Shown here one piece after another: positions 3,001-6,000 of a stretch of 26,111 nucleotides of DNA. This stretch comes from Planctomycetota bacterium (lineage in GTDB: Bacteria; Planctomycetota; GCA-002687715; DRQF01), in NCBI GenBank assembly GCA_027001995.1, contig JALTLO010000027.1, forward strand, positions 1 to 26,111, read 5' to 3'. The first letter of the stretch is position 1. Every line of letters starts with the position of its first letter. A program made the position numbers.

Positions 3001-6000
3001 CAAACAATCTCCCCTATTCTTTTCTTCTGTTTATCGAGAACTACTGCTACGGCCTGGCCTCCTCCAATTTTATTCATCTCTTTGTATTGAACGGTAATGT
3101 TGGCCGAACTCGCAGTCACTGGGCTCACTTGCGAAAGCCGAGATCCGTGTCGATCAAGGAGAAAGCAAGAATCGGCCATTGGGAATGCCCCGGTTGAAAA
3201 TTTGCAATCCCCATCCCTAGTTGCAACCACCATGACAATATCAGTAGTCACATTTCTGTCGGATTCGCTTTGTATCATGACAAGGCCGCGTGCGGGCAAA
3301 GCTAGCCCCGGGCTTTGGAATTCCAAGTGAATCGGGGGGCGTCAAGCTCCGGGCCCAATTGCACTCGAAGCCGACACGGCAATTGCCAAAAGGAAACAAT
3401 CTCCGTACGAAACCCCTTCTCCAAAAGAGGCACGCCTTTGCCACCGACCGCGTTATTCGTCTTCAATTTTCCGGCCAAGTCGGCTCATCGCGATACCCGG
3501 CGCAAAAGGCGAATCCGGCGAGTCAGAATCGGGGTTTTTTTTGAGGAACAAGGACAAGAAAAGAAGGTATCATTGACCCATGAAACGCTACATCACACTC
3601 GTCTCCTCCCTCACTTTGGCCATCGCGTCCTTAGTGGCCATGGGCTCACACCAAAAAGAACTCAAAACCGGCCGAGACAACCCGGTGGAGTTAGGGACCG
3701 TTTCTTGGCAAAGAGATCTGAATAAGGGGATCGCCCGGGCCAAGAAAACGGGTCGGGACATTTTCCTTTTGTTTCAAGAAGTGCCTGGCTGAAAGGGCTG
3801 CAAAGACTTCGGCACTCAAGTTTTGAGTGACCCACAAATCGTCGATGCCATCGAAGGCCATTACGTTCCTGTTTGCATCTACAACAACATCAAGGGAAAA
3901 GATGCTCAAGTACTTTCCTACTTCAAGGAGGCTACCTGGAATTATCCTGTCACCCGAATTGTCGACTTGAATCGCAAAGATGTTGTGGCGAGAAGCAGCA
4001 ATTGGCGCAATGGCCGAGGAGTCGTGAAGCAACTCATCTCTGCCATGAAAGCCCGCAACAAAACCCTCCCCGGCTACTTAGAACTCATGGCGCTCAATAA
4101 CAAGAAGAATGGCTACGAAACGGCTGTCTTTGGCATGTCATGATATTGGGTGGGTGAGGCCGAGTTCGGTCTCAAGAAAGGAATCATTTCAACCCGCCCA
4201 GGTTGGTTAGGTAGCGTCGAAGTCGTGGAGGTAAAATTCGATCCTGGCGTCACTTCCTTTGAAGACTTGGCGAGACATGCAGCGAAGAAACGCTGCGCTC
4301 AACCCATCTTCGCCTGCAATGACAAACAAATGAAAACTGCCAAGGTGTTCACTTCTCAAGTGAAACCCAGAGGCCAGAAGAGCATTCGTTGGGTAAAAGA
4401 CAACAAGTACTACATGAGCCAAGGTTCTCTGAAGTACTTACCCCTCACGAAAACGCAGGCAACCCGAATCAACGCCGGTCTCACTCAAGCCAGCTATTGG
4501 CTTTCTCCCAGCCAGAGAAGAATGCTCAAAACAATCAAAGCTCACCCCAGAGCGGGATGGCCATCAGCCATTGGCAAGCCCTTTCTGGAATCCTGGGCAG
4601 CAGCAAGAAAAATCGCAAACAAGCTGAAGAGCTGAGCCACGAAGACAACGTGGACGAAGGAGGGTCACCAAAGTTCATTCTGACTTGGAGTTGGCCAGAT
4701 CAAATCGGTCCAGGGCTTTCTGCCCTGGCCACCAGAATGATCGCCGCCAGATCATGACCCCAGCCTTGGTAGCAGCCAATTGGTCGGATCGGCTTGGCAC
4801 CCGGTCAAAAGGAAATGGCCAGCCAGAAGAACCATAGTGGCACCAAACCCCCACTTGGTTGCCACCTCCAATTCCACTGACGCATCTTTGAAGAAATGTA
4901 CCGCGACTCAAACCCCCTTTGCCACTGTCTCCCCGCAAGACGAAATCGCAATGGGTGTCAATAAATGGAGCGGTGATTCTGGGAGACCCAAATGGTTGGT
5001 CAGAGCCATTCAGATAGATGATCTTGTTTGGACCCAGTTGACGGCGGAGTGCTCGGATGAACGATCGCTGCTCAAGAAAATTACCCCTCAAACCGTCAAC
5101 ATAAAAGCCATCCAAGTCATAGAGCGAACGGAGTCGTTGCAACTCCTCTAACATGTTGTGACTCAGAGAATAGCGGGGAGAAACATAGGGGAGAAAACGC
5201 ATGCCATGGTTGTGCACATCCTCGATCGTTCGCCGAAACTGCTCTTCGTTCAAAGGCTCATGAAAGGCCGAGTGCCAAGGGTTCGGACGAAATCGGTAGC
5301 GGCTGAAACGAGGTCGAGCCTCGGGGAATTCCTCCTGCCAAAAATAGCCGTGCAAAGCAAAAATTTGAGCCTGTTGGCTAACAGCAGCAATGAGATCAGG
5401 ATGAGGAAGTTCTTCCCCGGATCGGGGCCTTCCCTCATGAGCAATTTGAACCCCTGCCAAAGTGGGATTGGGTAAACGCGGGGGAAAGACATGAAAGAAA
5501 AGAGACGCGTCTTGATCAATGGTGAATCGAGTAGGAGTGTCGAAACGATTCGACTGGCCTTTGAGCCGATAGACCCCACAGCCAAAGCCCTCACCTCGGT
5601 AATCAGCGGCCTGATCATTCGCCTCGAAAGAGCGCAGAGTAAAGAGCAAGGTCATCTTGGCAGACCAGGGCTCCTCTGAGGCGAATTCCACAAAACCATC
5701 CTCACAAATTTTGATGGCCTGAAGCCCACGCTTGAGCATCACTTCGGCGATGGATTCCTGGGCTATGTGCCAAGGTCCTGAGCCCTCCAGTTGCCATGTG
5801 ACCACTTCCGACCTTAAGGGCATCTTAGTCGTCACGGTCATGGAGTTCCCCGTGCAAGAAAAAGTCGCGCCAGTTGTGTCCACCACAACCATCTCACCCT
5901 CGCGCCGAATCTCATCAATCCTCATGGGAAGAAGAGACCTTTCGGCTAAGTGCGCCCAGTTGAGGAACAACCCAGGGCGACATCACTTCAGTGGCACTCA

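Follow-up and report, generated by a model that had tools for sequence, protein, structure and literature searches.

We describe a gene of a Planctomycetota bacterium that probably encodes a single exported selenoenzyme of two domains, for which we infer the function of a sulfoxide reductase recycled by its own thioredoxin-like UxxC domain. The gene lies in a stretch of 26,111 nucleotides that was analysed as a whole (the window; contig JALTLO010000027.1 of assembly GCA_027001995.1), and its parts are placed as follows:

3580..4635, +, whole gene, 351 codons and a TGA terminator
3580..3645, +, signal-peptide-like N-terminus (residues ~1-22), with basic residues first and then a hydrophobic stretch, as judged by eye
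3688..4068, +, thioredoxin-fold domain of the DsbH/DsbD-gamma/Thioredoxin_7 type (residues ~37-163), carrying U71-K-G-C74
3790..3792, +, UGA-1, predicted to encode selenocysteine (Sec) 71, with which the UxxC motif begins; column occupied by Cys or Sec in 118/118 homologues
3811..3832, +, SECIS-like hairpin 1, a 7-bp core (3813-3819 with 3823-3829) with a GUU apical loop and, beyond a bulge, two more G-C pairs
4102..4413, +, MsrA-fold catalytic domain (residues ~175-278), with two loop deletions relative to MsrA
4141..4143, +, UGA-2, predicted to encode Sec188, aligned with the catalytic Cys of the MsrA motif GCFWG; column occupied by Cys or Sec in 118/118 homologues
4156..4173, +, SECIS-like hairpin 2, GAGGCCG-AGUU-CGGUCUC, a 7-bp stem within a longer predicted structure (4146-4201)
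4219..4221, +, codon of Glu214, aligned with the catalytic Glu of MsrA (HAE, strand 3); invariant in 118/118 homologues
4294..4296, +, codon of Cys239, aligned by hhalign with the Tyr of the MsrA QYRS strand
4414..4632, +, C-terminal helical module (residues ~279-351) with invariant Q293 and N298, homologous to the extra helical domain of Sec-MsrA of the Clostridium oremlandii type

One gene with two in-frame TGA codons

Translated with read-through, positions 3580-4635 of the forward strand form one continuous frame that contains TGA at codons 71 (VPGUKGC) and 188 (FGMSUYWVGEA) and ends in a third TGA, the terminator; the opposite strand of the same interval contains real stops. The two internal TGAs split the gene into three ORFs in the output of gene callers, and the joining of these ORFs (g00547, g00548 and g00549) into one protein of 351 amino acids, made in a preliminary description of this DNA, is borne out by the translation. 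The same can be said of its assignment to the NCBIfam family NF041383 at about 317 bits over residues 37-315: we obtained 316.8 bits for these residues, above the curated cut-off (275) and across the full model (positions 1-286 of 287). The possibility that the terminator (4633-4635) encodes a third Sec was rejected: the only hairpin downstream of it, at +4, is weak (5 bp; -10.8 kcal/mol for 60 nt), and homologues stop at the same place, some of them with codons other than TGA. The ORF-poor stretch upstream of the gene (1781-3580), when translated with read-through, gave no family matches.

Both TGA codons are predicted to specify selenocysteine

The alignment of the family comprised 118 homologues, 34 from genomes and 84 from databases. 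The genomic forms have TGA in 25 cases and Cys in 9 at the first site, and TGA in 16 cases and Cys in 18 at the second; Cys occupies both sites in every one of the 84 database homologues. The second TGA is always found in a column that is otherwise invariant Cys, both among the 34 genomic and the 84 database sequences, and this pattern is far beyond chance. Around the first site, P69, G70 and Cys/Sec71 are invariant (95/95 sequences) and V68 nearly so (94/95), while the position +3 from U71 is occupied by Cys in 111/118 homologues and by Ser in the remaining 7/118; since only these two residues occur there, we use UxxC/S as the working motif. The earlier placement of U71 in a VPGUxxC/T thioredoxin-like motif agrees with the sequence VPGUKGC and with the thioredoxin fold described below. 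Beside the second site, an alignment of 85 sequences (A1) reveals C188, W190, E193 and E214 as invariant.

Each of the two codons is followed by a hairpin characteristic of Sec forms. Hairpin 1, at +21 to +42 from UGA-1, has 80.6% of its cells paired in the 25 Sec forms, where 31 cells are altered on both sides; slid registers reach 23-42%, and Cys forms pair at only 1-5 of 7 positions in the same register. Hairpin 2, at +15 to +32 from UGA-2, has 7/7 pairs in 14 of 16 Sec forms versus 0-5/7 in the 18 Cys forms, and its alignment is 97.3% paired, with compensatory change at 2 pairs; the fold of the 63 nt from the second UGA onward has -28.6 kcal/mol, exactly the value previously given for the hairpin after this codon. 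A Mann-Whitney comparison of Sec and Cys hairpins yields p values (3e-7 and 1e-5) that are too strong, because the forms with Sec at both sites (U,U) all belong to one clade. The residues VGEAEFGL (191-198) are fixed in U,U forms only, which on the sequence evidence is the coding footprint expected of a SECIS element. Stand-alone Sec-MsrA genes of the C. oremlandii subtype in the order to which the host belongs carry a hairpin whose register is that of hairpin 2 and whose loop is GUU. When the window was scanned against Rfam at gathering thresholds, there were 0 matches, none to a curated bacterial SECIS model, and the hairpin calls therefore rest on the alignments made here. A figure legend of PMC1976440 gives a conserved guanosine in the apical loop as a criterion for bacterial SECIS elements, and both of these candidate elements possess a guanosine in the loop (GUU and AGUU).

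Because both columns contain nothing else than Cys and Sec, and because each UGA is followed by a covarying hairpin specific to Sec forms, we regard UGA-71 and UGA-188 as Sec codons, at which selenium incorporation is predicted. The host genome encodes tRNA-Sec (68.2 bits), selA (510.9), selB (334.3) and selD (357.2), all above the respective cut-offs, and its selD gene itself contains a TGA.

Distribution of Sec and Cys forms

Within the order, the family has a match in 11 of 23 genomes including that of the window, i.e. in 10 of the 22 others. Nine matches in these other genomes are full-length, seven with two TGAs and two (G007 and G008) with a single one and the sequence LGMYCFWAGEA at the second site, which reproduces the counts of the preliminary description. 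At the level of the phylum, the 34 genomes exhibit the combinations (site 1, site 2) U,U in 16 cases, U,C in 9, C,C in 9 and C,U in none; as the U,U forms make up a single deep clade, the absence of C,U and the statistics on Sec versus Cys rest on few independent events. TGA in the column of codon 188 is found in 16/34 genomes from 8 taxonomic families. Public protein sets contain orphan C-terminal fragments of 155-165 aa, named 'hypothetical protein'. A related architecture (L030) comprises a thioredoxin domain and a helical tail, with no MsrA core.

Domain structure

The structure was modelled with AF2, with Cys substituted for Sec (pLDDT 91.9, pTM 0.87; pLDDT is low over residues 1-30). The N-termini of the 34 homologues resemble signal peptides or lipoboxes, several of them with ...[AG]C sites, and judged from these sequences the protein is most likely exported, either periplasmic or lipid-anchored. 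The first domain matches Pfam Thioredoxin_7 (32.2 bits), and its residues 40-162 superpose in VIA-align on 3f9u_A (Z 13.9, rmsd 2.5 Å over 121 residues) and on DsbD-gamma (2fwe; Z 11.7).

In the model, the C-terminal half is the whole MsrA catalytic fold together with a helical domain of the C. oremlandii type. The profile matches known before at residues ~180-212 were recovered (Pfam PMSR: 24.1 bits against a gathering score of 23.7, residues 181-212, 32 of 153 positions; TIGR00401 msrA: 20.9 bits, cut-off 108.1, residues 180-212). The accompanying caveat, in which the similarity to MsrA is confined to the first ~35 residues, holds only for such single-sequence HMM matches and does not extend to AF2, VIA-align and hhalign, which recover the full fold. 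Residues 175-277 superpose on E. coli MsrA (1ff3_C) with Z 12.2 and rmsd 1.6 Å over 99 residues, and residues 177-277 on the MsrA domain of PilB with Z 11.8-12.0 and rmsd 1.5 Å (for 3bqh, Z 12.0 over 97 residues); the matches to MsrA of E. coli, PilB and S. meliloti have Z 12.0-12.5 at 1.4-1.6 Å, and eight bacterial, plant and fusion-protein entries superposed on residues 175-278 (4gwb, 7e43, 7ot4, 6yev, 5fa9, 3bqh, 3e0m, 1ff3) have rmsd 1.4-1.6 Å over 96-99 residues and Z 11.5-12.7. The best of the VIA-align matches listed for this half of the protein aligns residues 177-323 with residues 5-208 of 4u66_A (Z 13.6, 143 residues, 25% identity), and the top matches of Foldseek are C. oremlandii MsrA (E 1.3e-7). 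In hhalign, the family was matched to 26 MsrA sequences of the order with a probability of 99.6% (E 5.5e-24), and to the Sec type (E 3.7e-22, 128 columns) better than to the housekeeping type (E 5.9e-17, 82 columns). The catalytic core is followed by an extra C-terminal helical domain, as in enzymes of the CoMsrA (C. oremlandii MsrA) type, and the hhalign alignment with nine Sec-type MsrAs of the order extends to residue ~304 (the helix ...QATRINAGL / ...STAxxRxN).

U188, Y189, W190 and E214 are aligned with the catalytic Cys, Phe, Trp and Glu of MsrA, and the Cys/Sec-Phe/Tyr-Trp columns at the start of helix 1 are either invariant or F/Y in all 118 sequences. A search of PDB with the family profile, which retrieved mouse MsrA (E 4e-9), places U188 on the Cys of GCFWG and E214 on the Glu of HAE; with the hhalign columns in agreement, U188 is the counterpart of the catalytic Cys, as had been proposed. 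The broader proposal of a fusion between a thioredoxin-like and an MsrA-like protein, with the second Sec at the MsrA site, likewise stands on the Sec/Cys pairing, the Sec-specific hairpins, the Sec machinery, the fold and the profile alignment. Cys239 is a possible auxiliary resolving Cys. Among the genomic forms, 14/16 of the U,U class, 7/9 of the U,C class and 9/9 of the C,C class have it, as do 38/84 database forms; a role as the obligatory resolving residue was rejected, as 46/84 database homologues have Val, Phe or Met instead.

According to the profile alignment, two loops of MsrA are absent, one of ~17 and one of ~10-15 residues, namely those with the PTY and HDP...QG motifs, and the set of two Tyr and one Asp that holds the sulfoxide oxygen or the substrate backbone in MsrA is not retained. 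The deleted loops presumably carry Tyr82 and Asp129 (of the E. coli/Neisseria enzymes), which we take to be two of the three sulfoxide-binding residues. Since these loops are gone and the QYRS Tyr is replaced by Cys239, only one of the three presumed oxygen ligands, the Glu, would be kept and the pocket must differ; because of the two deletions, we call the domain MsrA-like rather than a canonical MsrA.

Proposed function and alternative explanations

In the mechanism that we consider probable, a thioredoxin fold of the DsbH/DsbD-gamma type with the redox motif U71-x-x-C74 would serve a shortened MsrA fold that belongs to the 1-Cys type known from C. oremlandii and has Sec188 as the nucleophile. 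Sec188, helped by Y189/W190 (pocket) and E214 (acid), would attack a sulfoxide, most likely a protein methionine-S-sulfoxide of the cell envelope, and become a selenenic acid, which Sec71 of the thioredoxin-like domain could resolve as a diselenide; alternatively, a selenenylsulfide could form between Sec188 and Cys239 where the latter is present. Cys74 would then free Sec188, leaving a U71-C74 selenenylsulfide to be re-reduced by a membrane reductase of the DsbD/CcdA type. The fused Sec-Trx domain would thereby assume the role of the separate glutaredoxin that serves the thioredoxin-resistant Sec-MsrA of C. oremlandii. The host also encodes a DsbD_TM protein (99.2 bits), a candidate electron donor. 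Points against the mechanism are the two missing loops, the low TIGR00401 score, the conventional Cys-type MsrA (215.7 bits) and the MsrB that the host already possesses, and the lack of a conserved neighbour such as DsbD or MsrB. Genes adjoining the locus are involved in polysaccharide synthesis; DsbD, CcdA and MsrB are not among the neighbours within the window, and a comparison of 581 ORFs flanking 34 loci (~1.5 kb on each side) revealed neighbours shared only among close relatives.

A rather unlikely but serious competitor retains the architecture and both Sec residues, with the thioredoxin-like domain as the recycling partner, and lets Sec188 of the trimmed fold act on another oxidised or electrophilic substrate, such as sulfenic acids or disulfides on proteins, small free sulfoxides or selenoxides, or peroxides (the last in a GPx-like peroxidase cycle). 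It would account for the loss of two active-site loops and the replacement of the QYRS Tyr by Cys or Val, for the TIGR00401 score far under its cut-off and for the retention of standard MsrA and MsrB by the genome, and L030, which lacks the MsrA core, makes the thioredoxin module rather than Met-SO reduction the common denominator of the family. However, the Cys/Sec, Phe/Tyr, Trp and Glu that define the chemistry of MsrA and its methyl pocket vary little or not at all in 118 sequences, the core superposes on MsrA at 1.4-1.6 Å, and CoMsrA, the closest subfamily, is a proven Met-S-SO reductase (PMC4479559).

It is highly improbable that the C-terminal domain is instead a metal-binding domain of the HMA/CopZ/MerP-like beta-alpha-beta-beta-alpha-beta type, in which the selenium of GM[ST]U would be a ligand for a soft metal (Cu, Hg or another) and the thioredoxin-like domain would take part in metal-thiolate exchange. 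There are weak profile matches to HMA domains of copper ATPases, CopZ and MerP (E 0.004-0.6), and FGM[ST]U of the U,U clade resembles GMTCxxC, the HMA signature, but in the same search MsrA is matched 5-6 orders of magnitude better (E 4e-9; hhalign E 5.5e-24). Moreover, the second Cys of CxxC is absent (+2 is Trp, while +3 is variable, with V, T or E, and never Cys in the counts shown), no HMA structure occurs among the 50 VIA-align entries and the Foldseek matches listed, all of which are MsrA or thioredoxin folds, and E214 and the helical domain fit MsrA instead. Even less credible is a second TGA that is a genuine stop, due to a pseudogene, split genes or a sequencing error: the splitting of the locus by gene callers and the public orphan C-terminal fragments (155-165 aa) speak for it, but TGA recurs at the exact column in 16/34 genomes of 8 families with Cys elsewhere, the frame beyond it is open and conserved, a Sec-form-specific hairpin with compensatory changes lies downstream, and the genes for Sec decoding are all present in the host.

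The sulfoxide reductase mechanism can tentatively be combined with an evolutionary scenario into one reading, which as a whole we hold to be possible, if somewhat doubtful. The exported protein would operate an Se-Se relay between Sec188 and Sec71, the second Sec and its SECIS would have been inherited from a CoMsrA-type enzyme fused to a VPGU selenoprotein, the forms with Cys at the second site would be secondary, and the many public gene models and tables that give the family one Sec or none would be wrong.

Significance

In the literature searched, the one paper that names this family (PMC13188914) has it only as a thioredoxin-like protein with one Sec, and the present analysis provides it with a testable function and a domain architecture. 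It also matters for gene models, as 17 of the 39 genomes with the family in the sampled phylum have the two TGAs and the resulting orphan fragments are present in public protein sets. If the relay exists, the enzyme would be a self-contained sulfoxide reductase for the oxidising cell envelope. To our knowledge, it is rare for a bacterial protein to carry two Sec residues that belong to different catalytic domains and have an in-frame SECIS each. Kim et al. 2011 refer in their title to 'tandem use of selenocysteine' in C. oremlandii, and what that title names would here be united in one polypeptide. Tandem Sec in one chain offers a compact system for comparing Se-Se with Se-S exchange, and for examining what favours selenium in an oxidising extracytoplasmic compartment.

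Comparison with known systems

In a review of 2026 (PMC13188914), the NF041383 family is OS_HP5, 'VPGUxxT family thioredoxin-like (seleno)protein, type 2', and its table lists one Sec, the motif VPGU and the annotation 'thioredoxin-like (hypothetical)'; the main text of PMC1976440 covers OS_HP1-3 only, with neither OS_HP5 nor VPGU. The protein described here has the same VPGU in a thioredoxin-like domain and matches the model end to end; however, unlike the family as published there, it has a predicted second Sec at an MsrA-type site, with TGA in 16/34 genomes, and its C-terminal ~175 residues are modelled as an MsrA fold with a CoMsrA-type helical domain.

CoMsrA (C. oremlandii; PDB 4lwj, 4u66) is similar in the Sec at the catalytic position and in both the catalytic and the helical domain. 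PMC4479559 describes it as a native 1-Cys Sec enzyme that has an additional helical domain and whose activity exceeds that of the Cys form 20-fold; Grx reduces it and Trx does not. The lack of a resolving Cys and, in the mechanism proposed here, the need for a dedicated reductant other than Trx are further points of likeness. On the other hand, CoMsrA is a stand-alone enzyme of a Gram-positive anaerobe with a separate glutaredoxin, whereas the domain in the window is fused behind an exported Sec-containing thioredoxin-like domain, has GM[ST]U[YF]W in place of GUFWG and has lost two further loops.

PilB/MsrAB of Neisseria (thioredoxin-like, MsrA and MsrB domains) is likewise an envelope enzyme with an N-terminal thioredoxin-fold domain, which recycles the reductase with electrons from DsbD. 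That domain is of the DsbE type, in contrast to the DsbH/Thioredoxin_7 type found here, and PilB differs also in having Cys throughout, an MsrB domain and a full-length MsrA core. With canonical MsrA (PF01625/TIGR00401), be it that of E. coli or the host's own, the protein shares the fold, the Cys/Sec-Phe/Tyr-Trp triad, the Glu and a ...KY... remnant of DYHQxY, but it has two loops deleted and lacks a resolving Cys at the positions used by MsrA.

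Reading frame and family assignment

With TGA read through, positions 3580-4635 of the forward strand form a single frame of 351 codons, in which codons 71 (VPGUKGC motif) and 188 (FGMSUYWVGEA motif) are TGA and another TGA ends translation; on the opposite strand real stops close the frame. Under translation table 11 the frame is split three ways:

3580-3792, forward strand, ORF ending at the first in-frame TGA
3823-4143, forward strand, ORF ending at the second in-frame TGA
4150-4635, forward strand, ORF ending at the terminator

The read-through protein matches NF041383 ('VPGUxxT family thioredoxin-like (seleno)protein, type 2') with 316.8 bits over residues 37-315 (cut-off 275 bits), Pfam Thioredoxin_7 with 32.2 bits, Pfam PMSR with 24.1 bits over residues 181-212 (gathering score 23.7) and TIGR00401 msrA with 20.9 bits over residues 180-212. 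The counts given for the order in the preliminary description were reproduced: the family is matched in 11 of 23 genomes, that of the window included, with two TGA codons in 8 of the 11, a single one in G007 and G008, where the second site reads LGMYCFWAGEA, and a shorter form in G018. Among public gene calls are C-terminal pieces of 155-165 aa left as orphans; one is annotated as a 'hypothetical protein' on a 98.9-kb contig.

Assignment of both in-frame TGA codons to selenocysteine

The genome possesses a complete selenocysteine (Sec) machinery: genes for tRNA-Sec (68.2 bits), selA (510.9) and selD (357.2) adjoin on contig C148 (21750-24409; loci L001, L017 and L018), and selB (334.3) is located on contig C17. 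The selD frame has one in-frame TGA of its own, so SelD is probably a selenoprotein too.

In a phylum-wide search with NF041383, 39 of 401 genomes scored above the cut-off, with two TGA codons in 17, one in 10 and none in 12, as counted from the table of matches. Among the 34 genomes for which this search returned DNA, a TGA at site 1 always coincides with the VPG-C column and a TGA at site 2 with the C-F/Y-W column; the states at sites 1 and 2 (U, Sec; C, Cys) are U,U in 16, U,C in 9, C,C in 9 and C,U in none. The 84 full-length homologues from a database search, which are necessarily stop-free, all have Cys at both columns. Columns 71 and 188 (Cys and Sec taken together), Glu214 and Gln293 are invariant in 118/118 sequences. 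We assign both in-frame TGAs as selenocysteine codons. Despite the name VPGUxxT, the working motif of the family is UxxC/S: position 74, at +3 from Sec, holds Cys (111 of the 118 sequences) or Ser (7), and Thr is frequent at +2 (VPGUxTC).

The 16 U,U sequences come from eight taxonomic families, and their terminal branches measure 0.18-1.48 changes per site; a single branch (support 90/80) separates them from all others in a maximum-likelihood tree. The second Sec has therefore been retained for a long time, perhaps after a single origin, and many independent gains are outside what the tree supports. Cys99 (VPVCIYNN, window 3874-3876) of the thioredoxin-like domain occurs in 14/16 U,U, 2/9 U,C, 1/9 C,C and 11/84 database forms, and may mark the clade or act as a further redox partner.

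SECIS-like hairpins

Each Sec codon is followed by a SECIS-like hairpin:

+23 to +39 after the first UGA, forward strand, hairpin 1, 7-bp stem with a GUU loop
+15 to +32 after the second UGA, forward strand, hairpin 2, GAGGCCG-AGUU-CGGYCUC

The value of -28.6 kcal/mol previously noted for the fold after the second UGA was obtained again. In a fixed register, hairpin 2 forms 7/7 pairs in 14 of the 16 Sec forms and 6 and 5 pairs in the remaining two, as opposed to only 0-5 of 7 pairs in the 18 Cys forms. In the Sec forms 97.3% of its cells are paired, compared to 29-58% with the partner strand slid, and two pairs are changed on both sides. For hairpin 1 in the 25 site-1 Sec forms the corresponding values are 80.6% and 23-42%, with 31 doubly changed cells; the poorer fits represent a sub-group with another hairpin, CGGCC-GUG-GGCCG. 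Mann-Whitney p-values for Sec versus Cys hairpins overstate the evidence, because the U,U forms fall on a single branch. Residues 191-198 (VGEAEFGL) are fixed in the U,U class only and vary freely in Cys forms, which is what an RNA element inside the coding sequence would give.

Nine genomes of the order encode a stand-alone long Sec-MsrA (L080-L088; e.g. L087, G012 contig C170, 22815-26225) of ~200 aa with the motif GUFWG and a helical extension at the C-terminus. The SECIS of these genes (GACUCCCG-GUU-CGGGAGUC, nine loci) shares the register of hairpin 2, with the stem starting at +15, the GUU loop at +23..+25 and the 3' strand opening with CGG, but the stem sequence differs, in a compensated manner. 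The common register fits a Sec-MsrA ancestry of both the second Sec and hairpin 2; it may also reflect convergence imposed by the common ...FG... codons. In the window's own genome the only PF01625 match is a stop-free Cys-type MsrA (contig C197, 215.7 bits).

Domain architecture

An AlphaFold2 model built on an 85-sequence alignment has a mean pLDDT of 91.9 and a pTM of 0.87, with low confidence in residues 1-30 only. Residues ~40-162 are predicted to adopt a thioredoxin fold of the DsbH/DsbD-gamma/'exported cytochrome c biogenesis' kind, with matches to 3f9u_A (Z 13.9, 2.5 A, 121 residues), DsbH 2ju5 (Z 12.3) and DsbD-gamma 2fwe (Z 11.7). A third architecture (L030, G018 contig C249, 1345-2208) combines a one-Sec VPGU thioredoxin-like domain with a helical tail (...PTPAQATALEARL...LSPRQ...) and lacks the MsrA core; its protein is under both cut-offs (NF041383, 234.7 vs 275; NF041382, 144.9 vs 350).

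Residues 175-277 of the model superimpose on MsrA cores with Z 11.4-12.7. For E. coli 1ff3, Neisseria PilB 3bqh, S. meliloti 4gwb, H. pylori 7e43 and T. denticola 5fa9 the deviation is 1.4-1.6 A (96-99 residues); for the bovine and mouse enzymes and M. tuberculosis 1nwa it is 2.0-2.3 A (101-102 residues). The best structural match overall is C. oremlandii MsrA (CoMsrA; Foldseek E 1.3e-7), on whose chain 5-208 model residues 177-323 are aligned by VIA-align with Z 13.6 (143 residues, 25% identity). The family profile finds mouse MsrA (E 4e-9), placing U188 on the GCFWG Cys and Glu214 on the HAE Glu. In hhalign the C-terminal half matches a set of 26 MsrAs from this order with a probability of 99.6% (E 5.5e-24, 109 columns); the match to the nine Sec-type long MsrAs alone has E 3.7e-22 (128 columns, reaching the helical tail), and that to the 17 housekeeping MsrAs E 5.9e-17 (82 columns). 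The earlier concern that the MsrA likeness was confined to ~35 residues is removed by these alignments; as superposition and profiles agree, we predict that the C-terminal half is an entire, though trimmed, MsrA domain like that of CoMsrA.

Two MsrA loops are deleted in the profile alignments, 13-17 residues between strands 2 and 3 and 10-15 residues after helix 2, and Cys239 is aligned to the Tyr of QYRS. In MsrA the sulfoxide is held by Tyr82, Asp129 and Tyr134 together with Glu94. The deleted or replaced segments presumably carry the first three (E. coli/Neisseria); if these roles hold, Glu would be the sole sulfoxide-holding residue retained, and the pocket would be unlike that of canonical MsrA. 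Cys239 is found in 30/34 genomic forms and in only 38/84 database homologues, which rules it out as an obligatory resolving residue.

Location and genomic neighbourhood

Judged by eye, the N-terminus is signal-peptide-like, as in most of the 34 homologues, and lipobox-like ...[AG]C ends are seen in 8/34. The neighbours in the window are glycosyltransferases, GNAT, polysaccharide-synthesis enzymes and a 431-aa ORF. Among flanking ORFs within ~1.5 kb of each side at the 34 loci, we found no neighbour conserved beyond close relatives, which suggests a stand-alone gene. A membrane reductase of DsbD type (99.2 bits) and an MsrB (165 bits) are also encoded in the genome. Other features of the window are:

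1781-3580, just upstream, ~1.8 kb with table 11 ORFs of <=116 aa; no NCBIfam match in three read-through frames and none in Rfam
1601-2800, AT skew strongly positive (0.21-0.37)
4675-5970, reverse strand, the 431-aa ORF, convergent with the gene; no Pfam or NCBIfam match; homologous ORF downstream of the gene in five close-relative loci (L020, L021, L022, L024, L025)
14543-17467, forward strand, 974-aa fusion of sigma-70 regions 2 and 4 with a CarboxypepD_reg domain
22267-25182, reverse strand, 971-aa fusion of a Ser/Thr protein kinase with an FGE-sulfatase domain

Proposed function and alternatives

The protein combines two Sec codons, each with its SECIS, a thioredoxin fold with UxxC, a predicted export signal and an MsrA fold whose catalytic positions hold Sec, Tyr/Phe, Trp and Glu. 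By analogy, we regard it as reasonably probable that it is an exported sulfoxide reductase acting through Sec188 and recycled by the fused Sec71/Cys74 domain and then DsbD. Sec188 would reduce a sulfoxide, for which Met-S-sulfoxide in proteins of the envelope is the likeliest candidate, and become a selenenic acid; this would be attacked by Sec71, the mixed bond would be resolved by Cys74, and the U71-C74 pair would be re-reduced by DsbD. Recycling by the fused domain is proposed because the fused thioredoxin-like domain of Neisseria PilB serves the Msr domains, and a dedicated reductant because the thioredoxin-resistant Sec-MsrA of C. oremlandii needs one.

The main competing possibility, to which we give roughly one chance in four, keeps the architecture and replaces the substrate, as the two missing pocket loops might suggest. 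An HMA-like metal-binding domain, indicated by weak profile matches (E 0.004-0.6), is very improbable, the second ligand Cys being absent, and it is harder still to believe in a real stop or a pseudogene, contradicted as these are by the Sec machinery, the Sec/Cys pairing and the SECIS hairpins.

Comparison with known systems

In excerpts returned by literature searches on selenoprotein and MsrA-fusion topics, neither a second Sec nor an MsrA domain is described for the VPGUxxT family. The one paper that a full-text search found to name the family, a review, lists it (as OS_HP5) with a single Sec and the motif VPGU, and treats Sec-MsrA separately, with the motif GUFWG/H (PMC13188914); the main text of the article it cites for OS_HP5 names only OS_HP1-3 (PMC1976440); the curators may know more of the second Sec than is in print. 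Here a known selenoprotein family acquires another Sec at a catalytic position, another SECIS and a putative function. The closest structural relative, CoMsrA, is a 1-Cys MsrA with a native Sec at the catalytic site, is 20-fold more active in the Sec than in the Cys form, and is reducible by glutaredoxin and not by thioredoxin (PMC4479559).
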